A DNA stretch of 56,657 nucleotides from Bacteroidia bacterium (GTDB lineage: Bacteria; Bacteroidota; Bacteroidia; Bacteroidales; VadinHA17). Positions 3,406 through 40,091 of this stretch are shown one piece after another. Where the stretch lies: positions 1 to 56,657 of the forward strand of contig JAPLDY010000152.1 in assembly GCA_026391595.1 (NCBI GenBank), in the 5' to 3' direction. The position numbers were made by a program, and so were the translations under genes. Below the pieces are notes generated by a model. The model did not search any database. It had not been told where the DNA came from and saw only the letters and a list, made by a program, of their open reading frames with translations. Every line of letters begins with the position of its first letter. Within the stretch, counting starts at the first letter, position 1.

Positions 3406-4854
3406 ATGGAGAAAGATCAGGATAAAATAATAAGTGATGTAACTTCCGGTGATTACAAGTACGGATTCTATACCGATATTGAAACTGATAGGATTACTAA
3501 GGGACTTAATGAAGAGGTCGTCCGTATTATTTCAAAAAAGAAAAATGAACCCGAATGGCTTCTTGAATTCAGACTCAAGGCATTCCGTCACTGGAAAACG
3601 ATGAAGATGCCAGGATGGGCAAACCTTAAGATACCATCAATTGATTACCAGGATATTATATATTATGCTGCTCCAATGCAGAAGATATCTCCTCAAAGTC
3701 TTGATGATATTGACCCTGAACTGAAGAAGACATTTGACAAGCTTGGCATCCCGCTTGAAGAACAGAAACACCTTACAGGAGTTGCCGTTGATGCTGTAAT
3801 GGATAGCGTATCCGTAAAAACAACTTTCAGGGAAACGCTTGCCGAATCAGGTATCATCTTTTGCTCGTTTAGCGATGCAGTGAAAGAGTACCCCGATCTG
3901 GTGAAAAGATATATGGGCACCGTAGTACCTTACACTGATAATTTCTTTGCATCACTTAATTCAGCAGTGTTCAGCGACGGCTCATTCTGTTATATCCCGA
4001 AAGGCGTTCGCTGTCCGATGGAGCTTTCAACATATTTCAGGATAAACTCTGCAAACACCGGCCAGTTTGAACGCACTCTCCTGGTGGCTGACGAAGAAGC
4101 ATATGTGAGTTACCTTGAAGGATGCACGGCACCAAGGAGAGATGAGAACCAGCTTCATGCCGCTATAGTTGAGATAATTGCAGAGAACAATGCCGAGGTA
4201 AAATATTCAACCGTTCAGAATTGGTACCCCGGTGATAAAGATGGCAGGGGAGGGATATTCAATTTTGTGACAAAACGAGGTTTATGCAGAGGTGAAAACT
4301 CCAAGATATCATGGACTCAGGTTGAGACAGGATCGGCAATAACCTGGAAATATCCATCGTGCATTCTCCGCGGCGATAATTCGACAGGTGAATTCTATTC
4401 CGTTGCTGTGACCAATAATTATCAGCAGGCCGATACTGGAACAAAAATGATACATATCGGAAAAAACACAAAAAGCACAATTGTATCAAAGGGAATTTCT
4501 GCAGGGCATGGACAAAACAGCTATCGCGGTCTCGTAAAGGTTTTGAAAAATGCGACAGGTTCAAGGAATTACTCACAGTGCGATTCGCTTTTGCTAGGAG
4601 ATAAATGCGGAGCCCATACATTCCCCTATATCGAAGTTGATAATCAGTCTGCTGTTGTTGAGCACGAAGCAACAACCTCTAAAATCGGGGAGGACCAGAT
4701 CTTTTATTGCAACCAGAGAGGTATATCGACAGAGGACGCGATAGGACTAATCGTCAATGGTTATGCACGGGAGGTGCTGAATAAGCTTCCGATGGAGTTT
4801 GCTGTTGAAGCTCAGAAACTTCTGCAGATCAGCCTCGAAGGAAGCGTTGGATAA
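3406..4854 (+). CDS. sufB: Fe-S cluster assembly scaffold SufB
   Basis: 482 aa; [45 protein letters not shown]. Confidence 0.98.
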
Positions 4855-4887
4855 AAGACAAAAGACAAAACACAAAAGATCAAAGAA
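4853..4887 (+). repeat. Heptamer tandem array in the sufB-sufC spacer
   Basis: AAAAGAC AAAAGAC AAAACAC AAAAGAT CAAAGAA. Confidence 0.75.
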
Positions 4888-22402: not shown

Positions 22403-23293
22403 ATGAACAGAAATGATTTTCTGAGGATGATTGAGAGCTCCGGACCAGCCGATCGCACCATGATCGGTGAGGTAAATGAGCTAATTAATATCTTCCCGTA
22501 TTTCCAGAGTGCATACCTTTTGATGCTTAAAGGGCTTCAGAATACTTCTGACGTAAAGTTTGAAAACCAGCTCCGGATCTCTGCCATGCATATTGCTGAC
22601 CGGGAAGTACTTTATTATTTGCTGAAGAAAGAGCCTGATGCTGAGGAAGTGAAGGAAGTTGTAACTGCCGGGACGACTGTTGTATCACCGGAGGATTCGG
22701 CAGAAAGCCAGCAGGTAGTGATCGAATCAGCAAAAAACAGCGAGGACTTTATCAATGAAATAGAAAAAGAGGCACTCCCGGCAGAAGATGATGAAGAACT
22801 GCTGGATCATTCTGTTCTCATCTCGGAAGAATCAGATGAAGAAGATGAAGATTCAACTATTTTTATTATCGATTCGGAATCTGGTTCAGAAGAAGAAAAA
22901 ATAATCTATATGGATCCGGGGTTTTCTGTCCCGGAACCTGAAAAGCTTCTTGAGCTTCTACCGGAAGAGAACACTACTTTATCATCAGAACCACTGACGG
23001 ATCCAGTAACTAAGAAACAGCTTCAATCGGAACTTATTGATAAATTCATAATAGCAAATCCCAGAATCGAACCCAGGAAAGAAAAATCTGAAGCTCAAAA
23101 TATAGATTTCTCGACTCCGTACATTGAAGAGAAAGGCGGATTTGTAACGGAAACACTTGCCAGAATATATATTAATCAGGGCTATTATTCGAGGGCTATA
23201 GATATTTATGAGAAACTAAGTTTGAAATTTCCGGAAAAAAGTAGTTACTTTGCGACGCAAATTGAAAAAGTGAAAGAATTATTAAAAAAGTAA
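22403..23293 (+). CDS. Conserved acidic protein with C-terminal TPR
   Basis: FPYFQ N-terminus; TETLARIYINQG...KFPEKSSYFA. Confidence 0.8.
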   Translation: MNRNDFLRMIESSGPADRTMIGEVNELINIFPYFQSAYLLMLKGLQNTSDVKFENQLRISAMHIADREVLYYLLKKEPDAEEVKEVVTAGTTVVSPEDSAESQQVVIESAKNSEDFINEIEKEALPAEDDEELLDHSVLISEESDEEDEDSTIFIIDSESGSEEEKIIYMDPGFSVPEPEKLLELLPEENTTLSSEPLTDPVTKKQLQSELIDKFIIANPRIEPRKEKSEAQNIDFSTPYIEEKGGFVTETLARIYINQGYYSRAIDIYEKLSLKFPEKSSYFATQIEKVKELLKK

Positions 23294-31413: not shown

Positions 31414-32160
31414 CTAGGCCGAATCTCCCGAAATATCTTTAATCCTTTTCCAAGCCTGGCTTGAAGCTTCCTGTTCAGCCTCTTTCTTGGAAACACCCTG
31501 TCCTTTTCCGAATTCTTCCCTGTCTATAAACAGAGTTGTAGAGAAAACCGAATTTCTGGAAATAAAATCGTATTCTTCGTTATAAGTAAAAATGAGGTTA
31601 GCCTTATGTTTTTGAACCCATTCAAAAACAAGGCTTTTATAATCGGTGTCGGTGTTTACTATCTGTTCCAGATTCAGATATCTGTTAAAGACCTTTTTTA
31701 TGAAGAGCTTTTTAGTCTTACGGAAACCCTTGTCAATGAACACTGCCCCGATCACTGCTTCCAGGGCATCGCCGTACAGATTTTTTGTAGAATGAGAAGA
31801 GCTTACATTACTTATCAGGATCTTATTAATGCCCATTGACACAGAAAGGTTGTTAAGGACATCCCTGTTGACTATCCTTGAGCGTATTTTTGTAAGAAAA
31901 CCCTCACTGGCATCTGGGAATTTTTCGAAAAGGTAATCTGAAAGAATGGCATCCAGTATGGCATCTCCCAGGTATTCAAGTCTTTCGTTATTGATCCTCT
32001 GTCCATCCGGAAGCTTGTAGGAAGCAGATCGGTGAATGAAAGCAATTTCATATAATCTAAGGTTCCCCGGTTTGAAGCCAAGAATCTTGCTTAAACGAGA
32101 TCCGAATTCGCGTTTATCAAGGATATATGTACCGTTGTTTATTAATTTGAATAGAGACAC
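31414..32160 (-). CDS. rnc: Ribonuclease III
   Basis: NERLEYLGDAIL signature, dsRBD with SKKEAEQ. Confidence 0.97.
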   Translation of the reverse strand: MSLFKLINNGTYILDKREFGSRLSKILGFKPGNLRLYEIAFIHRSASYKLPDGQRINNERLEYLGDAILDAILSDYLFEKFPDASEGFLTKIRSRIVNRDVLNNLSVSMGINKILISNVSSSHSTKNLYGDALEAVIGAVFIDKGFRKTKKLFIKKVFNRYLNLEQIVNTDTDYKSLVFEWVQKHKANLIFTYNEEYDFISRNSVFSTTLFIDREEFGKGQGVSKKEAEQEASSQAWKRIKDISGDSA

Positions 32161-34437: not shown

Positions 34438-35677
34438 CAAGCATGCTCAGCACGAGCAATTTATTCTTTTCGAATCTTGACAGGTTCTCCTCTGAAACAG
34501 GTTCAACAGGTGGCGCTTCGACGCTCAGCGGATCGACAGGGGATCCATTCCTGTAAAACCTGAAATCGAGATGCGGACCTGTTGAAAGGCCGCTGCTTCC
34601 TACATAACCAATGATATCTCCCTGCTTAACCTGCGCACCTGCATAAACCCCTTTCCCGAAACCGCTTAGATGAAGATATGCAGTGGAATAGACACTGTTA
34701 TGGGTAATCCTCACAATCCTTCCTGATCCATTCTCAGTTCCGGCAAAAGTCACTTTGCCATCACCGATAGCCTCAACAGGAGTGCCTATGGGTGCCGCAT
34801 AATCTACACCGAAATGAGGCCTTCTGATCCTGAGTATCGGGTGAAGCCGGCCAGAAGAGAACCGGGAACTTATCCTTGAGAACCTAAGAGGAGCTTTGAG
34901 AAATGCCTTCCTCATGCTGTTACCGTCACCATCGAAGAAGGTCTCCTTGCCATCCTGGATGAAAGGTATGGCAGTAATGGTCTTACCAGCCCATGTGAAT
35001 TGCGCTCCATATATTTTGCCTATCCTGAGAGATTCATCATCTATAAATAGCTCTTCGTAGAACACCTTGTAGCTGTCTCCCTTCTGCAGACTGAAAAAAT
35101 CAACGGTCCAGGCAAAAATTTCTGACAATTCACCCGGAAGCTCCGGATGCATGCCTGCCGCCATCATGGATTCCCAGAGAGATGTCTCTATGGTACCTGA
35201 TGAATACCTTATGACCTTCCTGATCTCTTTCCTGTAAGGGGTTATATTCAGCGAGTCGTTGAAGCTGAAGATATAGCTTAAAGTGGGATCATGTTCATAT
35301 ACCAGATACCCGGCTCTTGCAACAGAATCTGTATCGCAGAAAAGGGTATAGTGATTTCCCGACCTGATTTTTCTGACATCAAAGACAGAATCTGAATTTT
35401 TAACTACCTGGTCTATCTCCTGCATGGTAATACCGTGCCCGAGGAGAATTTCCGAAAGAAATCCATTTCGTTTTATGTGCCCCGGAATGAGTGTGAACTG
35501 GTCTGAAGGGATTCCGAGAGTGAGTACCGGTTTCTTGATCTGGACTGCTGCCGTGTCAGTTACAGGTGGCTGTATATTTAAGTTATCCTTCTGAAAGTAC
35601 CTGCATGAAGAGGCTAAAAGCAACAACAATACCGGAATGATGAACTTTGCCCGTGAAAACATTATCGTCCGCATCAA
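34427..35677 (-). CDS. M23 peptidoglycan DD-endopeptidase, probable lipoprotein
   Basis: [21 protein letters not shown] motifs; ASSC lipobox. Confidence 0.9.
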
Positions 35678-38337
35678 TTTTTAACAACTATGTTCACGAT
35701 CCGGTTGGGAACCACAATTATGTCGGACATTTTTCCGGTTGAGAGCCATTTTTGTGCTCTTTCATCCGCAAGCACTATTCTGGCTATCTCCTCCTTGCCC
35801 ATATTTACGGGCAGCTCTATCTTGAACCTTAGCTTGCCGTTGAATGAAACCGGGTATTCGAAAGTATCCTCTTTAAGATACGTTTCATTTACAACAGGCC
35901 ACGGTTCATAGGCAAGTGTTCTGGCATGTCCCTGTTGCTGCCATAACTCTTCAGCTATATGTGGTGCAAATGGAGATAATATTTTTGTAAAGATATTTAC
36001 AGTCTCTTTTGTGACTTTTCCCTTTTTCATAGCAAGGTTAAGGAAAATCATCATCGCTGAAATTGCAGTGTTGAACCTGAGATTCTCAATATCGCCTTCC
36101 ACCTTCTTTATTGCCTGGTGGAGACCTTTAAGTATTTCAGGATTCTCATCTGCTGCAACAATATTCCCGGGATTCGAGAAGAACCTGTATGTTCTTCCAA
36201 GGAAGTTGAAGACACCTTTCACACCTTTGTCATCCCATGGCTTTGTAACATCAAGCGGACCCATAAACATTTCATATAATCTTAAAGAGTCTGCCCCATA
36301 TCTTAGAACAACATCATCAGGATTGACGACGTTTTTTAGGGATTTCGACATTTTTGCCACTATCTGCCTCACTTCCATACCTGTTTCGCTGTTGTAGAAT
36401 TTGCCGTCGCGTTCCTCAATAATGTCGGCAGCGACTTTTCCACCGGCCTCATTTTCATAGGCAAAAGCGAGGATCATTCCCTGGTTGAAAAGTTTCTTAT
36501 AAGGTTCATCAGTGGAGACGATACCAAGGTCGAACAGCACCATATGCCAGAACCGGCTGTAGAGAAGATGAAGAACAGCATGCTCTGCGCCTCCAATATA
36601 GAGATCCACCGGCATCCAGTATTTTTCCTTTGCAGTATCAAATATCAGCTTATCATTATGAGGATCTATATAACGCAGGTAATACCAGCACGAACCTGCC
36701 CATTGAGGCATTGTGTTCGTTTCACGCCTGCCCCTGCGGCCAGAATTATCTGTCACAGTAAGCCATTCGGTCGCATTTGCCAGCGGAGATTCTCCTGATT
36801 CTCCGGGAAGATATTTTTCAAGCTGAGGCAGTTCAAGAGGAAGCTCTTTTTCATCGATCAGGGATATTTCACCATCTTCCCAGTGGATCACCGGGAATGG
36901 CTCGCCCCAGTATCGCTGTCTGCTGAATAGCCAGTCGCGAAGCTTATAATTTACTTTTTCCCTGCCCAGGTTCGTTGACTCGAGCCATGAAATTATCTTT
37001 GCGATTCCTGTTTCTTTATTCAGACCGTTGATGTCGATGCCGGTCGCCATATCGGATGAATTTATATATGTACCATCTTCTGTCCAGCACTCTTCACCCT
37101 TTAATATTCTCTCTTTCTGATTATGATCAGATACATCAGGATCCTGGATGCAAACGACAGGCAGGTCAAATTTCTTTGCAAATTCAAAGTCGCGGGTGTC
37201 ATGTGCCGGAACAGCCATGATAGCTCCGGTGCCGTAGCCCGTAAGAACATAATCGGCTACCCAAATTTGTAACTTCTTATGATTCACAGGATTAATTGCA
37301 TAGCGTCCGGTAAAGACACCGGTTTTTTCCTTGGCAAGGTCGGTGCGGTCGAGATCTGACTTAAGCGAAGCTGCCTTTATATAGTCATTTACATCTTTCC
37401 TTCTTTCATCAGTGGTTATGGTTACCGTCAGTGAATGTTCCGGAGCGATAACCATATAGGTTGCTCCGAAAAGAGTATCCGGACGAGTTGTAAAAACTGT
37501 CAATTTCTGGTTCAGCCCTTCAACAGCGAAATCGACTTCAGCGCCTGTAGAGCGGCCGATCCAGTTACGCTGCATGTCTTTTATTCCTTCCGGCCAGTCG
37601 ACATTATCAATACCTGACAGGAGTCTTTCGGCATAAAGAGGTATACGCAGCATCCACTGTTTGAGGTTTTTCTTTTCAACCTTGTTGCCGCATTTTTCGT
37701 GCGACCCGTCGAAGAGCACTTCTTCGTTGGCGCATACTATCCTGCAGCTCGGGCACCACCATACCTGGGCATTGTCATAATAGGCAAGCCTTTTTGAGTC
37801 GATGTATTTTGTAACCTCCTTTTTTCCCTGTTTCTTTATTTCCTCCGGGATGATAAACTCTGATATCGGTCTCCCTTTCTGGAGTTTTTCGTCAAACCAG
37901 GTATTGTATAATTTTATAAAGATCCACTGCGTCCATTTATAGTATTTGGGATCGGTTGTGTTGATCTCCCTCTCCCAGTCGTAGCTGAGGCCCAGTTCCT
38001 TTATCTGGCGCCTGAAAGTATCGCAATTGTTTTTTGTTGTGACGGAAGGATGTGTTCCCGTCTGGATAGCGTACTGCTCAGCAGGCAATCCGAATGCGTC
38101 CCAGCCCATGGGGTGCAGCACATTAAAACCCTTCATTCTTTTATACCTGCTGAATATATCGGTTGCCGTATAGCCTTCGGGATGTCCGACATGAAGACCG
38201 GCTCCTGAAGGGTACGGGTACATATCGAGTACATAGCATTTTTTTGGATTAGTCAGGTATTCCGGAGTTCTGAAAGTCTTATTCTCCTCCCAGTATTTCT
38301 GCCATTTTTTCTCGATATCGGTGAAGTTGTATTCCAT
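35674..38337 (-). CDS. leuS: Leucine--tRNA ligase
   Basis: [24 protein letters not shown] editing motif. Confidence 0.99.
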
Positions 38338-38364
38338 TTTAGGAAGTGTAAATTATTGGTTTAT

Positions 38365-38397
38365 AGAAGACGGAAGACCGAAGACCGAAGACAGAAG
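38365..38397. repeat. Heptamer-built inverted-repeat arm downstream of the four-helix-bundle gene
   Basis: AGAAGACGGAAGACCGAAGACCGAAGACAGAAG. Confidence 0.92.
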
Positions 38398-38461
38398 ATT
38401 GACGAACGAAGTGAGGAAATTCCGCAGAGCGGAACCGAAGAAAGAAGATTTAAGTGGTATA

Positions 38462-38821
38462 TCATTTAATTTTGTTTTTAAATGCAATCATCATATTCAT
38501 TAAATTAAAAGCATACTCATATGATTTATTGAAATCCATTTCGGAAATATAAATTCTCCTGTGTGCTTTGTGTAAACAAGTAACAACCTCGGCAAGTGAC
38601 CGTATTGCAATGCTCATAAATCTTTTTTGTTCAGGATCTGACTGTCCAATAGAACCTTCTGAAATATTTAATGAGATGGAATCAACCGCCCGACGGATTT
38701 GAGAGGTCAGATTATACAACTCATCTTTGGGGAACTGCTTAGATAAAGTAAAAATCGTTTCACCATAATCCATTGATTTATGCCAGATAACAAGATTCTC
38801 AAATTTAAATTTACCATCCAT
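38462..38821 (-). CDS. Four-helix-bundle protein (23S rRNA IVS-protein-like, TIGR02436 type)
   Basis: FENLVIWHKS, FPKDELYNLTSQIRRAVDSISLNISEG, FMSIAIRSLAE. Confidence 0.93.
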   Translation of the reverse strand: MDGKFKFENLVIWHKSMDYGETIFTLSKQFPKDELYNLTSQIRRAVDSISLNISEGSIGQSDPEQKRFMSIAIRSLAEVVTCLHKAHRRIYISEMDFNKSYEYAFNLMNMMIAFKNKIK

Positions 38822-38833
38822 TGTATTAACAAA

Positions 38834-38866
38834 CTTCCGTCTTCGGTCTTCGGTCTTCCATCTTCT
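38834..38866. repeat. Heptamer-built inverted-repeat arm upstream of the four-helix-bundle gene
   Basis: CTTCCGTCTTCGGTCTTCGGTCTTCCATCTTCT; reverse complement matches 38365-38397 at 31/33. Confidence 0.92.
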
Positions 38867-38874
38867 TAAGGCTG

Positions 38875-38931
38875 CGAAATTAGAAAATCTTTAGGAAATA
38901 TTGTAAAACCGCCCTATTGATGTTACTTTTG
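38875..38931. promoter_or_regulatory. Divergent promoters for four-helix-bundle gene/leuS and for tRNA-Arg
   Basis: Minus TAATTTCG at 38875-38882; plus TACTTTTG at 38924-38931. Confidence 0.55.
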
Positions 38932-38941
38932 TTTCATAATT

Positions 38942-39014
38942 GGTCCCGTAGTTCAATGGATAGAATGGCAGATTCCGGTTCTGTTGGTTGAGAGTTCGAA
39001 TCTCTCCGGGATCA
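38942..39014 (+). tRNA. tRNA-Arg (anticodon CCG)
   Basis: GGTCCCG/CGGGATC acceptor, GCAGA-TTCCGGT-TCTGT anticodon arm, GAGAG-TTCGAAT-CTCTC T arm; CCA not encoded. Confidence 0.95.
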
Positions 39015-39024
39015 CATATCATAG

Positions 39025-39058
39025 AAAGCAGCGCTGATAATCAGTGCTGTTTTCTTTA
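39025..39058. terminator. Terminator after tRNA-Arg
   Basis: AAAGCAGCGCTGA-TAA-TCAGTGCTGTTTT. Confidence 0.7.
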
Positions 39059-39117
39059 TAGGGACTTACTTTTATTGTCCGTTCCGGGAGATCGTTTTAT
39101 TCCAGCGGAATTATATT

Positions 39118-39585
39118 TTAATTTTTAATTAATTGTTCTTTATTAGGCCTGGTTGTCAAAACAAGTTCCTTTATTTCTGATGGCAATTGTTCATTTTGCC
39201 ATTTTCTTTCTTCATCTATTGATCTGTTTGCATTTTTAACGGCTTTCAGAGCATACATTGCTGCTCCTAACGAATGATCAGCCATATGGGCTGTGGCTAC
39301 AGCCTGTCCGACGGAACGGGCAACAGCTATTGAAGTCGGATTAAAAGATTTTCTTGCTACTTCGTGAGCATCAACTGAAGCTTTTATGGCGCTACCGACA
39401 GTTGCATTCCCGGCTGCCCAATCTTTTGCAGTAATTAATGCATCTTTCAGCCGTGCTCCCAGATTTTCATCATATAAGAAAAATACATGTTCTGCACATT
39501 TACAAGCCCATTCAATTAATTGTCTGTGATGTTCTTTTATCAGAAGTCCACCCCGGTGTTCTGTTATAAATCTTTTGTCCCGCAT
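39118..39585 (-). CDS. Imm5-like putative immunity protein
   Basis: WACKCAEHV, ARSVGQAVATAHMADHSLGAAMYALKA, ERKWQ; likely start MRDKRF. Confidence 0.75.
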   Translation of the reverse strand: MRDKRFITEHRGGLLIKEHHRQLIEWACKCAEHVFFLYDENLGARLKDALITAKDWAAGNATVGSAIKASVDAHEVARKSFNPTSIAVARSVGQAVATAHMADHSLGAAMYALKAVKNANRSIDEERKWQNEQLPSEIKELVLTTRPNKEQLIKN

Positions 39586-39602
39586 ACTAAAACATGTTCG
39601 AA

Positions 39603-40091
39603 TCACTGCCAATTTCCAGATTGTTTGCCTGTTATTGAGTCTATTCTGAGTTTTAATATTATCATCCGGGAAAGGAGTGATTCATCATAATTCAGTTCCA
39701 TAGCAGCTCCGTATTTAAGCATAATCAGATCTAATCCTCTCTTTTTCGATTCCGGATCGTTTTCAAGAAAGATGGTCCCTTTCCCCATAACAGAACGATA
39801 CACAGTTGTCCAGTTACAAGGAATCTCACTTCTGATAATTTCACATGAATACTCAATCTCGAAGGTTATTCGATTATTCCGCTTTATCAAATCAATTTTC
39901 CTACCGGCCGGAGCAGAATGAATATAGATCAGCCCATTTTCATAGGCATAATTGGTCGGAACAATGTACGCTTCATCTTTATCAACCAATCCGAGTCTGC
40001 ATATCGCAGACTTTTCAAGAATTTCCTGAATTATTCTATTGTCTGTTATCTCTTTATCTTGTCTTCTCATAAATGACGAGGATTTTTTCAT
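39603..40091 (-). CDS. Pyridoxamine 5'-phosphate oxidase/NimA-like flavin-nucleotide-binding protein
   Basis: MRRQDKEI, CRLGL, YIHSA..GRK, YRSVMGKG, ITGK. Confidence 0.85.
   Translation of the reverse strand: MKKSSSFMRRQDKEITDNRIIQEILEKSAICRLGLVDKDEAYIVPTNYAYENGLIYIHSAPAGRKIDLIKRNNRITFEIEYSCEIIRSEIPCNWTTVYRSVMGKGTIFLENDPESKKRGLDLIMLKYGAAMELNYDESLLSRMIILKLRIDSITGKQSGNWQ

Follow-up and report, generated by a model that had tools for sequence, protein, structure and literature searches.

A gene of the PF05635 family in the leader of leuS is enclosed by two arrays of short tandem repeats inverted with respect to one another, and the recurrence of this gene-in-repeat-hairpin design across Bacteroidota suggests that housekeeping transcripts harbor a kind of cassette not described before. 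We consider it probable that the element is a promoter-less PF05635 cassette within inverted tandem-repeat arms that has been gained and lost over evolution and is co-transcribed with its host genes. The copy in the window (the whole stretch of 56,657 nucleotides analyzed here) would be one resident of this family-wide cassette, with inverted arrays hugging its start and stop codons.

The cassette in the leuS leader

The cassette lies in the leuS 5' UTR, downstream of a conserved promoter element of leuS and upstream of its ATG (Table 1). An earlier note made from the sequence alone had placed it between a -7 element and this ATG, which is confirmed (38875-38882 and 38337), and had described two heptamer arms around 38462-38821 that are reverse complements at 31 of 33 positions, which an inverted-repeat search and TRF both recovered. 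The arms (38365-38401 and 38830-38866) are 37 nt each, 92% complementary and separated by 428 nt, and no inverted repeat spanning up to 1.5 kb is longer anywhere in the 56.6-kb window. TRF reports them as GAAGACC x4.7 at 38366-38398 and CTTCCGT x4.6 at 38834-38865. Read on the minus strand, the inner 33 positions form 31 Watson-Crick pairs plus one U.G and one G.U, the plus-strand equivalents of which are A.C and C.A, and the claim that both mismatches are wobbles on the minus strand and of the A-C type on the other thus held on direct reading. Two sense-strand wobbles alone are not significant, because the chance of this outcome with two transitions is about 1 in 4. RNAfold of the minus strand of 38330-38900 predicts an unbroken 33-bp stem that closes the ORF (z = -5.2), with 0 of 100 shuffles folding equally well.

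Table 1. Features of the leuS leader cassette in the window, and copies of its 76-nt module on other contigs of the genome
Feature	Location	Strand	Identity	Basis
leuS promoter -7-like element TAATTTCG	38875..38882 (read 38882-38875)	-		sequence reading
5' arm, purine-rich heptamer array GAAGAYN x ~4.6	38830..38866	-		sequence, inverted-repeat search, TRF
PF05635/TIGR02436 four-helix-bundle gene, 119 aa, Avd-like fold	38462..38821	-		profiles, AF2, Foldseek
Spacer, stop codon to 3' arm; small hairpin and degenerate units	38402..38461	-		blastn, sequence
3' arm, pyrimidine-rich heptamer array GTCTTCN x ~4.7	38365..38401	-		sequence, inverted-repeat search, TRF
leuS, 887 aa, host gene, ATG at 38337	35674..38337	-		ORF, Pfam
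tRNA-Arg(CCG), divergent neighbor	38942..39015	+		Rfam
76-nt module copy	C158:5951-6026		92%	blastn
76-nt module copy	C14:322-391		91%	blastn
76-nt module copy	C175:25763-25823		90%	blastn
76-nt module copy	C46:21696-21726		97% over 31 nt	blastn

The 5' arm begins 8 nt downstream of TAATTTCG, which we take to fit the Bacteroidetes -7 consensus TAnnTTTG, so that the predicted transcript start falls at or beside the base of the stem. Another 8 nt separate the end of this arm from the ATG of the ORF, and these two short intervals leave no space for a promoter belonging to the ORF itself; at the other end, 27 nt lie between the 3' arm and the leuS ATG. A TTTTCTA(A/T)TTTCGC motif was found again upstream of leuS at same-genus loci, at most of which the tRNA-Arg/leuS synteny is also conserved. 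A sigma-70 promoter scan of the leader was set aside as not applicable to Bacteroidota promoters. There are no terminator-like sites in 38200-39200, including the interval between the cassette and leuS, and the sole Rfam match in 37800-39400 (E<=1) is the tRNA-Arg, the cassette not being in 23S rRNA. The hairpin in the spacer reads TTCCGC-AGA-GCGGAA on the plus strand (38420-38434).

The neighbors of the cassette include leuS, tRNA-Arg and an Imm5-like gene, and none of the seven neighboring ORFs encodes a transposase, in keeping with the earlier note's inference of a cassette that rides without one. An integrase was likewise found neither nearby nor in the genome, and a search of the genome (95.5% complete) gave 0 matches to the reverse transcriptase profile PF00078. 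Direct reading of the arm ends of the window copy revealed no target-site duplication.

The encoded protein

The ORF at 38462-38821 matches PF05635 (E 4e-30, 104.6 bits; cut-off 33.8) and TIGR02436 (E 1.7e-28, 99 bits; cut-off 24). Its AF2 model (pLDDT 95.6) consists of four long helices, and a Foldseek search with this model retrieved 2gsc (TM 0.94), 2rld (0.81-0.83), Avd (4dwl, 0.79) and a DGR RNP (8ube, 0.78), which identifies a predicted four-helix up-down bundle of the 2gsc and 2rld type. Avd was not reached by sequence searches from the cassette protein. Both solved homologues were deposited with five chains. To our knowledge PF05635 has no known catalytic motif, and all that we know to have been said of its function since 1993 is that it occurs in rRNA intervening sequences and is similar to Avd. 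The family motif R-x3-S-x3-N-x2-E, printed as GxxRxxxSxxxNxxE (PMC3936711), is present, with R44, S48 and N52 invariant and E55 nearly so among 27 sequences and the leading G replaced by Q41 here. The protein is under purifying selection (median dN/dS 0.126), and the ORF is intact in 81 of 81 cases. PF05635 occurs in 162 of 201 Bacteroidota genomes, at up to 19 copies per genome and roughly 1000 loci overall. A reading as a defense system was dropped, as PADLOC returned no match for three paralogues.

Repeat arrays at other loci

Paralogues were expected to carry arms, and by direct reading arrays built of a locus-specific unit stand on both sides of the gene at six of the eight PF05635 loci of this genome; of the other two, one has an upstream array only, next to a 3'-truncated ORF, and one is ambiguous. 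To gauge generality, arrays were counted by TRF in the 160-nt flanks of each PF05635 gene in other Bacteroidota. Both flanks carried arrays at 80 of 134 loci and one flank at 42, giving arrays on at least one side at 122 of 134, against a background of 59 of 1522 160-nt windows (4%). The counts for both sides, one side and none were 54, 19 and 4 in subfamily A (n = 77), 19, 7 and 1 in subfamily B (n = 27), and 7, 16 and 7 among the top 30 phylum matches. Relatives were sought with a single protein as query, the seven paralogues being too divergent for an alignment query. A typical flanking array has about 4.5 units, and the arms often lie 0-10 nt from the start and stop codons. Across 79 loci, 307 GAAGNC occur upstream and 303 GNCTTC downstream, against background rates per 160 nt of 0.22 and 0.13, respectively. 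The repeat unit stays with the protein subfamily across orders.

Arrays are also abundant away from PF05635 genes. The genome holds 174 short tandem arrays, most without such a gene, and only 28 of them fall in long ORFs, though long ORFs cover 85% of the genome. Several large array families, such as the 10-mer CTCTGTGTCA (18 arrays) and AAGCCTG (16 arrays), have no PF05635 gene beside them. Part of the spacer together with the 3' arm forms a module of about 76 nt (38366-38441) that recurs at four other sites in the genome. In 101 genomes of the same genus, the median number of matches to three-unit GAAGWC arrays was 20 in gene-positive genomes (n = 23) and 1 in gene-negative ones (n = 78; Mann-Whitney p 1.3e-6, related genomes not being independent), with at least five matches still present in 27 of the 78 gene-negative genomes.

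Pairing of the arms

The arms vary from locus to locus, yet match within each locus. The inverted score of a gene's own upstream and downstream arrays exceeded the 95th percentile of cross-locus pairs at 20 of 28 loci and at 15 of 30 in a second set. In an orthologous thioesterase-IVP-thiolase series, both arms change jointly between two types, TAGTATT and TAAGAT, in step with the protein clade, and at leuS the arms are GAAGAC/GTCTTC in three loci and GATGAC/GTCATC instead in L017 and L029. Many stems are imperfect because mismatches recur once per unit (174 such transversions across 79 loci) and arm lengths are unequal, as in L022 with about 27 units versus 4. Some loci have direct instead of inverted arrays, or extra hairpins, and high direct scores were seen at 9 of 28.

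The earlier note proposed that the arms may be selected as RNA structure, and looked to an excess of G-U pairs on the coding strand as the sign of this. With the register set by Watson-Crick matches only, sense and antisense wobbles numbered 50:53 (79 loci), 13:28 (21 loci) and 9:10 (15 loci), or 72 versus 91 in total, and the predicted bias is thus absent in all three sets. RNAduplex energies split the 79 loci almost evenly, favoring the sense strand in 41 and the antisense in 38. Neither measure bears out selection as RNA, and G-U strand bias is discarded as proof of it; therefore sequence alone cannot show RNA-level over DNA-level selection, and the arms could equally be held complementary as DNA.

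Orientation, contexts, and gain and loss

Orientation was assessed for 139 loci representing 77 contexts, with neighbor strands taken from stop-to-stop ORFs rather than gene calls. The downstream neighbor lies on the cassette's strand in 56 of 60 contexts, the upstream neighbor in 56 of 61, and both in 47 of 52. Among ordinary genes of the genome, 70% of adjacent pairs are co-oriented and 52% of genes share a strand with both neighbors. Cassettes are far more often co-oriented with their neighbors than ordinary genes are, which fits the suggestion that they ride in host transcripts. Relatives with 67-82% protein identity (81 subfamily A sequences) spread over about 37 contexts, an approximate figure because clustering chained some loci through translated repeat arrays, the stricter count being the 77 contexts above.

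At leuS the cassette is not fixed, in line with the earlier note's idea of a mobile or processed cassette: of 24 same-genus leuS loci, 5 carry the gene, and on the LeuS tree 12 of the 24 leaders have neither hairpin nor gene. Gene-less leaders with hairpins built of other units are those of L011, L012, L018-L020, L028 and L038. A further 17 copies in the genus comprise 9 at leuS and 8 elsewhere. Three leaders (L030, L032 and L193) contain empty hairpins with an identical junction, and the gene-bearing L031 is nested among them; a clade of these empties, named after the tree was seen, is rejected by the AU test (p 0.0034). Over evolutionary time the cassette has been gained, lost and relocated, in some cases through loss of the ORF with the hairpin left behind. 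L017 was left out of both LeuS trees (short frame) and L194, L195 and L199 out of the later one (500-aa limit); permutation tests omitted L005 and L171, near-twins of L004 and L170. The 16-nt pattern of the empty junction has five exact matches, namely the three leuS leaders and two chance occurrences in coding DNA; searches allowing one mismatch returned mostly noise, with counts similar to controls.

The thioesterase-thiolase site provides an independent case, occurring in filled, empty-hairpin and hairpin-less forms, and of its 30 loci 7 are filled and 5 or more are clearly empty; here the thiolase ATG follows the cassette stop by 19 nt. The 22 proteins from leuS contexts group together in the protein tree with support 88, and the leuS copy seems to have descended vertically with repeated losses, rather than to have moved recently. 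No near-identical copies were found in different contexts of one genome, the top pairs being orthologous sites; the C56 and C64 copies are 85% identical.

Four sets of metagenome DNA contigs were also inspected. High depth over 38351-38432 means that the arm and module sequence is repeated there, and no more. One contig joins arm to arm over 445 nt (depth 4, short side 23 nt, 90% likeness). A joint at 38506-38834 has 37 replaced letters, which identify it as the cassette of a relative. As single contigs with 90% likeness and short sides, such joints were not counted as evidence. Contigs end at the arms, which is of consequence for assembly and annotation.

A proposed course of expression

Transcribed from the leuS promoter, the cassette would make up the opening ~530 nt of the leuS mRNA, where the arms would have to meet as a 33-bp duplex looping out the ORF. 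By analogy with the 23S rRNA intervening sequence (IVS) that carries a PF05635 gene, RNase III may cut this stem, and the genome contains an RNase III gene (rnc homologue, 31681-32055). Such a cut would release the host mRNA from the cassette, with the ORF remaining on an RNA capped by the stem. Translation of the ORF would take place mainly before stem closure, since the 3' arm is the last part to be made. If the protein behaves like pentameric Avd, it may then bind arrays built of its subfamily's repeat, among them the copies that stand without a gene at other sites in the genome. We offer only tentatively the fuller proposal of a cognate system, in which each PF05635 subfamily would recognize arrays of its own 7-10-nt unit, with each subunit of a pentameric ring taking up about one unit, the gene would sit in the hairpin loop and could leave precisely, and the gene-less hairpins of Bacteroidota, perhaps also the heptamers of Cyanobacteria and Beggiatoaceae, would represent its targets or the traces it has left.

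Comparison with known systems

The closest parallel is the 23S rRNA IVS of Leptospira and Coxiella. In both, a long inverted-repeat stem within a housekeeping transcript holds in its loop a PF05635 ORF of about 120 codons, the distribution is sporadic and there is no transposase, and the cassette shares with the IVS an extended stem enclosing the insert (33 bp, z -5.2). The IVS with its PF05635 ORF goes back to Ralph & McClelland 1993 (cited in PMC4990558), and RNase III cuts mid-stem in an inverted-repeat rRNA IVS bearing a PF05635 gene (PMC4990558). Unlike the IVS, which is inserted in helix 9, 25 or 45 of 23S rRNA, the cassette resides in mRNA leaders and operon spacers and in no 23S rRNA helix. 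Its arms are short tandem repeats with a unit tied to the protein subfamily, and gene-less repeat hairpins are scattered through its genome. Its protein is also under clear purifying selection, whereas the Coxiella authors conclude in their abstract that the IVS protein is probably not made in vivo.

Homology between PF05635 and Avd of diversity-generating retroelements (DGRs) is stated in PMC10053308, and the predicted structure of the cassette protein has the same fold (4dwl TM 0.79; 8ube TM 0.78). The cassette genome differs from a DGR in having no PF00078 match and no template/variable repeat pair, and a role as DGR component was rejected since no reverse transcriptase was found in the 95.5%-complete genome. 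Avd is a nucleic-acid-associated pentamer. In REPIN-RAYT systems, a gene with flanking inverted repeats coexists with gene-less copies and repeats cognate to its subfamily, and RAYT is a Y1 transposase. The cassette recalls REP/REPIN-RAYT in its single gene between inverted short repeats, its many gene-less intergenic copies, its repeat units that differ between subfamilies, and, with exceptions among gene-negative genomes, a repeat abundance that tends to follow gene presence. This is an analogy only, as PF05635 proteins are small helical bundles without a known catalytic site and the cassette repeats stand in tandem instead of forming single palindromes. With MITEs and small IS elements the cassette has in common that its ends are inverted, that it is polymorphic for presence and that short derivatives lack the gene. 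The cassette has no transposase in or near it and no visible target-site duplication, although an enzyme acting in trans is possible; its ends are tandem arrays of variable length, and its orientation is tied to host transcription.

Intergenic heptamer arrays such as the cyanobacterial STRR and TAACTGA are likewise short tandem 7-mers, often just upstream of start codons. As far as the available part of PMC4679880 goes, TAACTGA repeats occur patchily across phyla, in Beggiatoaceae, Cyanobacteria and some Bacteroidetes, with their function unexplained, and differ from the cassette in being mostly direct repeats, not inverted pairs around a gene; that part has 0 mentions of 23S, four-helix or intervening-sequence proteins. 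No link between PF05635 genes and flanking inverted tandem arrays was found in the literature searched, which covered only a minority of subscription journals, so an earlier description is possible.

Alternative explanations

The absence of a G-U strand bias suits a DNA-level element, whose arrays would be terminal inverted repeats of protein-binding sites, or DNA prone to cruciforms or slippage, mediating insertion, excision and recombination of the ORF module through the PF05635 protein or a host enzyme, with the RNA stem as a by-product. The many insertion contexts and the gene-less copies of units and of the 76-nt arm module scattered through the genome point the same way, as does the loss of the ORF at identical, microhomology-free end points in non-sister lineages, which resembles site-specific excision; the arm-to-arm metagenome contig adds a weak indication. 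Against these stands the orientation of about 92% of contexts with host transcription, needless for a self-expressed element. Neither a transposase, integrase or reverse transcriptase, nearby or in the genome, nor by eye a target-site duplication at the window copy accompanies the cassette, PF05635 has no catalytic motif known to us, and near-identical copies in different contexts of one genome were not found, the C56/C64 pair reaching 85%. On balance we regard this explanation as unlikely. We give still less credence to a host regulatory device, in which the repeat hairpin would set the stability or translation of flanking genes (through 5'-end protection or translational coupling) and the small protein would be a trans regulator, like a ring protein on tandem RNA repeats, for which TRAP is a precedent. 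Arrays are strongly intergenic, arms abut downstream start codons, as ahead of thiolase, hairpins of other units persist in gene-less leuS leaders, and the typical array of ~4.5 units may be set beside the five chains of the solved homologues. A post-transcriptional role was proposed for TAACTGA arrays by MacGregor 2015 (PMC4679880). However, half of the same-genus leuS leaders (12 of 24) do without hairpin or gene, which makes the device dispensable for leuS, one protein subfamily stands before genes as unrelated as leuS, nuoK, an ftsZ-like gene and thiolase, and presence on the host tree is patchy.

It is also conceivable, though we think it very improbable, that slippage simply makes arrays and hairpins in AT-rich intergenic DNA where PF05635 genes merely persist, with arm complementarity arising by gene conversion between nearby inverted arrays. 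The predominance of arrays without a PF05635 gene, the freely varying copy numbers of the arms and the absent G-U bias would all be compatible with such a neutral origin. It accounts poorly for arrays beside 122 of 134 PF05635 loci when 4% of background windows have them, for a unit retained with its protein subfamily across orders, for arms that hug start and stop codons, and for the joint switching of both arms at orthologous sites. The promoter-less cassette carried in host transcripts remains our preferred reading.

Significance

In conclusion, the analysis offers an architecture, an ORF in the loop of a repeat-built stem within host transcripts, and ties the common PF05635 family to the unexplained short intergenic tandem repeats of Bacteroidota and Cyanobacteria. 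PF05635 genes have been placed "in" cas operons (PMC3936711), and these may more economically be seen as insertions into operons. The cognate protein-repeat system, if true, would constitute a new selfish or regulatory element that spreads in host transcripts without a transposase.

The cassette in the leuS leader

The earlier note described a four-helix-bundle gene, its heptamer arms, a -7-like box and the leuS ATG, and this description of the sequence holds at each element; the pairing it claimed is likewise borne out, as the inner 33 positions of the arms comprise 31 Watson-Crick pairs, one U.G and one G.U on the minus strand. An inverted-repeat search gives 37-nt arms that are 92% complementary, the longest inverted repeat with a span of at most 1.5 kb anywhere in the window, and TRF counts 4.7 and 4.6 copies of the 7-mer in the two arms. 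In RNAfold, a 33-bp stem closes around the ORF (z = -5.2; equally good shuffles 0/100). We take the -7-like box to be a promoter element by the Bacteroidetes -7 consensus, and the transcript would start at the position that this consensus indicates.

Features of the leuS cassette and of related repeat sites in the window and its genome (C, contig)
Feature	Position	Strand	Remark
-7-like box TAATTTCG	38882-38875	-	sequence reading
5' arm, purine-rich heptamer array	38866-38830	-	8 nt after -7-like box
ORF, 119 codons, ATG start	38821-38462	-	8 nt after 5' arm
Spacer between ORF and 3' arm, 60 nt		-	sequence reading
3' arm, pyrimidine-rich heptamer array	38401-38365	-	27 nt before leuS ATG
leuS ATG	38337	-
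Module (3' arm + spacer), ~76 nt	38366-38441
Module copies elsewhere	C158:5951-6026, C14:322-391, C175:25763-25823, C46:21696-21726		90-97% identity
Gene-less hairpin	C114:9649-9732		window's own unit
Arrays of 10-mer family CTCTGTGTCA	C104:22098-22136, 23065-23160, C263:11585-11687		examples
Array AAAAGAC x4.4	4853-4884		~10 nt upstream of an ATG
RNase III homologue	31681-32055		within window
Imm5-like putative immunity gene	39118-39612	-	PF21805, E 7e-38; just past tRNA-Arg

Insert-free leaders of the same genus carry a box, TTTTCTA(A/T)TTTCGC, ~45-60 nt upstream of the leuS ATG, and in gene-bearing leaders the arm starts 8-12 nt downstream of it. This gap leaves no space for a promoter of the ORF's own, and with an arm starting right after the leuS box both arms must belong to the leuS transcript. 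No terminator-like sites were found between cassette and leuS. The cassette is an ORF with no promoter of its own, lying in the loop of a stem built from repeats. At one same-genus locus (L022, G013:C15) the 3' arm has ~27 GTCT(T/C)CN units and the 5' arm ~4, so arm lengths change independently.

In profile searches the ORF product hits PF05635 at E 4e-30 and TIGR02436 at E 1.7e-28. Its AlphaFold model, built from a 27-sequence alignment, has four long helices (pLDDT 95.6), and Foldseek ranks 2gsc highest (TM 0.94), then 2rld (TM 0.81-0.83), followed by the DGR protein Avd (4dwl, TM 0.79; 8ube, TM 0.78). The two solved homologues were each deposited as five chains. R44-x3-S48-x3-N52-x2-E55 is conserved in the alignment, a motif also noted for the family in PMC3936711. 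No PADLOC model matched in a defence-system search of three paralogues. In subfamily A, which groups the window protein with its relatives, 81/81 ORFs are intact and dN/dS has a median of 0.126 across 259 pairs; selection on the protein maintains the cassette.

Repeat arrays at PF05635 genes

The genome's nine HMM matches represent eight PF05635 loci, one gene being split. Its paralogues do carry arms, as the earlier note anticipated: read directly, the flanks have arrays on both sides at 6/8 loci, each with its own unit type (GGGAGAG-type, GCAAGTCGT/CTGCAAGAC at two loci, GAAAATTT, GCACAGG/CTGAGCC and GAAGACC). At another locus the array is confined to the upstream side (AATGGTAC x ~14) and the ORF is 3'-truncated; the last locus is AT-rich, its arrays ambiguous on direct reading. 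TRF finds 522 arrays genome-wide, most commonly of period 7 (70 arrays) or 9 (61); among the 174 with period 6-11 and at least three copies, only 28 have their midpoint inside a long ORF, though long ORFs make up 85% of the DNA. By unit, arrays fall into a 9-mer family (28 arrays, four adjoining PF05635 genes), a GAAGACC-like family (23, two), the 10-mer family (18, none), an AAGCCTG/AGGCGTC-type heptamer family (16, none) and the TTGTACCG family (15, one). Some arrays of the two PF05635-free families are pyrimidine-first hairpins 3' of genes. Several hairpins in the genome are gene-less, consisting of an array, a 5-80-nt loop and an inverted array. The ~76-nt module, a GAAGAC array plus GATTGACGAACGAAGTGAGGAAATTCCGC-NGA-GCGGAAC that includes a 6-bp hairpin (TTCCGC-NGA-GCGGAA), recurs at four further loci, and all five copies lie among GAAGAC units; the C46 copy and metagenome contigs contain an additional GC-rich insertion bearing GCGAAGC-like mini-hairpins. 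The window's AAAAGAC array resembles start-codon-proximal TAACTGA arrays described for Beggiatoaceae.

Searching species-representative genomes turned up 448 proteins related to that of the window. The flanks of the best 80 (67-82% identity), from Bacteroidales, Flavobacteriales, Cytophagales, Saprospiraceae and Marinilabiliales records, are rich in GAAG(A/T)CN units on the upstream side and in the complement on the downstream side: over 79 loci, GAAGNC and GNCTTC number 307 vs 11 upstream and 48 vs 303 downstream, with background frequencies of 0.22 and 0.13 per 160 nt. Subfamily B, represented by 29 separate genomes within the order, is the C64 type; its proteins are 38-55% identical to the query, and its arrays are built of 7-10-mers quite unlike those of subfamily A. 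In a phylum sample, PF05635 occurs in 162/201 genomes at up to 19 copies each, and at the 30 best matches the mostly shorter arms close against start and stop codons. In 160-nt flanks, TRF detects arrays on both sides, one side and neither side at 54, 19 and 4 of 77 subfamily A loci, at 19, 7 and 1 of 27 subfamily B loci, and at 7, 16 and 7 of the 30 top phylum matches (background windows with an array, 59/1522; median array, 4.5 copies). The gene-in-repeat-arms architecture is family-wide. Some subfamily A loci (L048, L055, L060-L062, L064, L091, L104, L107) have an extra downstream hairpin (purine array, short loop, pyrimidine array) or a hairpin on each side; there the 3' array would have two possible partners, a local one and the distal 5' array, each giving a different structure.

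Three-unit GAAGWC arrays number a median of 20 in 23 gene-positive vs 1 in 78 gene-negative genomes of the same genus (Mann-Whitney p 1.3e-6, with kinship among the 101 genomes ignored and the arms themselves adding matches), and at least five matches occur in 19/23 vs 27/78. That array abundance tracks the gene is suggestive only, given non-independent genomes, the arms' own matches and cassettes that are hard to assemble. Among sequencing runs, only DNA metagenome contigs were listed for the locus; contigs from four of these sets end within the arms, with high depth on the arm module; contigs also end within arrays at C56 and C220:1-84 of the window's genome and, in public assemblies, at 38396-38425. 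Cassettes and gene-less hairpins are thus probably under-represented in short-read assemblies.

Arm complementarity and strand

Arm matching was scored as the ungapped inverted match of each locus's own upstream/downstream pair vs cross-locus pairs. Permutation tests exclude L005 and L171, near-twins of L004 and L170, respectively. Own pairs exceed the cross-locus 95th percentile at 20/28 subfamily B loci (expected 1.4) and 15/30 phylum loci. Direct-repeat scores are also high at 9/28 subfamily B loci, as a full hairpin may flank the gene on one or both sides. Seven loci at the orthologous thioesterase-IVP-thiolase site (IVP, the PF05635 gene) have two arm types, TAGTATT and TAAGAT, which follow protein clades and score 10-21 within type vs 5-8 between types; leuS arms are GATGAC/GTCATC at L017 and L029 vs GAAGAC/GTCTTC elsewhere. 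Such joint switches indicate that both arms change together. At L159, L162 and L174, thioesterase-IVP-thiolase loci, the arms directly touch (0 nt) the ATG and stop codon. Only 19 nt separate the cassette stop from the thiolase ATG, so the 3' arm overlaps the downstream gene's initiation region.

The coding-strand G-U bias proposed in the earlier note is absent. With the register set by Watson-Crick matches alone, which is strand-neutral, and transitions then counted, sense vs antisense wobbles are 50:53 at 79 subfamily A loci, 13:28 at 21 subfamily B loci and 9:10 at 15 phylum loci. Transversions are frequent (174, 60 and 35, respectively), often once per unit, and RNAduplex energy is better on the sense strand at 41/79 loci and on the antisense strand at 38/79. 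These counts leave the sequence silent on whether pairing is selected at the RNA or DNA level.

Orientation, gain and loss

Merging loci with common neighbours (ORFs no shorter than 150 aa and no farther than 500 nt away, strands from stop-to-stop ORFs) reduced 139 loci to 77 contexts. The downstream neighbour shares the cassette's strand in 56/60 contexts, the upstream in 56/61 and both in 47/52; genome-wide, 70% of adjacent ORF pairs are co-stranded and 52% of genes are co-stranded with both neighbours. Cassettes sit sense-oriented within host transcription units, and this bias is the strongest sequence-based argument that they depend on host transcription. Named by eye from translations, the contexts take in the leuS leader, with 21 of the best 80 loci, and nuoJ-nuoK-like spacers, with nine; an ftsA/ftsZ-like spacer, moxR-like/DUF58-like genes and thioesterase/thiolase are also among them.

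Fixation at leuS would speak against the mobile cassette of the earlier note, and only 5/24 same-genus leuS loci carry it (L010, which is the window's own, and L017, L022, L029 and L031), with the tRNA-Arg/promoter/leuS order mostly retained across the 24. The subfamily occurs in 23/101 same-genus genomes, and of 17 further genus copies nine are at leuS and eight elsewhere. On a LeuS tree (700 aa; L017, with a short frame, was left out of both trees, and L194, L195 and L199, below 500 aa, of one), gene-bearing leaders are dispersed, the presence label changes seven times with 10 gene-bearing rows among 31, and the window locus has a gene-less sister, L013 (99/96 support). In three relatives, L030, L032 and L193, the GAAGAC hairpin is empty and its junction identical, ...GACAG|TATTTCTT...; subtracting the short leader and ORF from the L031 cassette gives this sequence, and microhomology is absent. 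Gene-bearing L031 is nested among these empties (100/99); an empties clade, a group named after the tree was seen, is rejected by an AU test (p 0.0034). This implies either two ORF-module losses at the same nucleotides, or exact regain, or allele exchange. In the protein tree, the proteins from leuS contexts, 22 in all, group together (support 88), which suggests for the leuS copy a single old insertion followed by many losses; proteins from the nuoJK context form three groups, one sister to a moxR-context pair (99*). Among 30 thioesterase/thiolase spacers from another family, by eye, seven hold the gene and at least five a clear empty hairpin, the rest having neither or being ambiguous; this is an independent site with the filled/empty pattern of leuS. 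The cassette can lose its ORF with the hairpin left behind, and its arms co-vary.

Proposed mechanism and relation to known systems

Of known systems, the 23S rRNA intervening sequence with an ORF comes nearest, and the cassette has gene, stem and lifestyle in common with it, the stem enclosing the insert being present at the window copy. Unlike that element, defined by its place in rRNA, the window cassette lies in the leuS leader. RNase III cuts the inverted-repeat stem of rRNA intervening sequences (PMC4990558). By homology, the leuS pre-mRNA would fold the 33-bp stem and RNase III would cut out the cassette. Translation of the ORF would take place largely ahead of 3'-arm synthesis, or else on the stem-capped RNA after excision. 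More speculatively, the protein may bind arrays of its own unit, as suggested by the subfamily-unit link, gene-less arrays, arrays of ~4.5 units and five-chain homologues.

The chief competing reading is an element acting at the DNA level, in which the arrays would serve for recombination or binding. The missing G-U bias and the precision of the ORF losses favour it; the orientation bias of the cassettes and the absence of any recombinase count against it. The window cassette's neighbours (purN-like, M23 peptidase, leuS, tRNA-Arg(CCG), Imm5-like, PNPOx-like and M19 dipeptidase) include no transposase, and direct reading of the arm ends shows no target-site duplication; the cassette is not a classical transposon. 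A DGR component was ruled out by the absence of a PF00078 reverse transcriptase from the genome (95.5% complete). Nor is the cassette a REPIN; REPIN-RAYT offers an analogy only.

PF05635 genes have been reported inside cas operons (PMC3936711), which is consistent with insertion into operons, and our literature search found no description of tandem-repeat arms around such genes. We consider it a realistic prospect, though less likely than not, that the family and its arrays constitute a new protein-repeat system.
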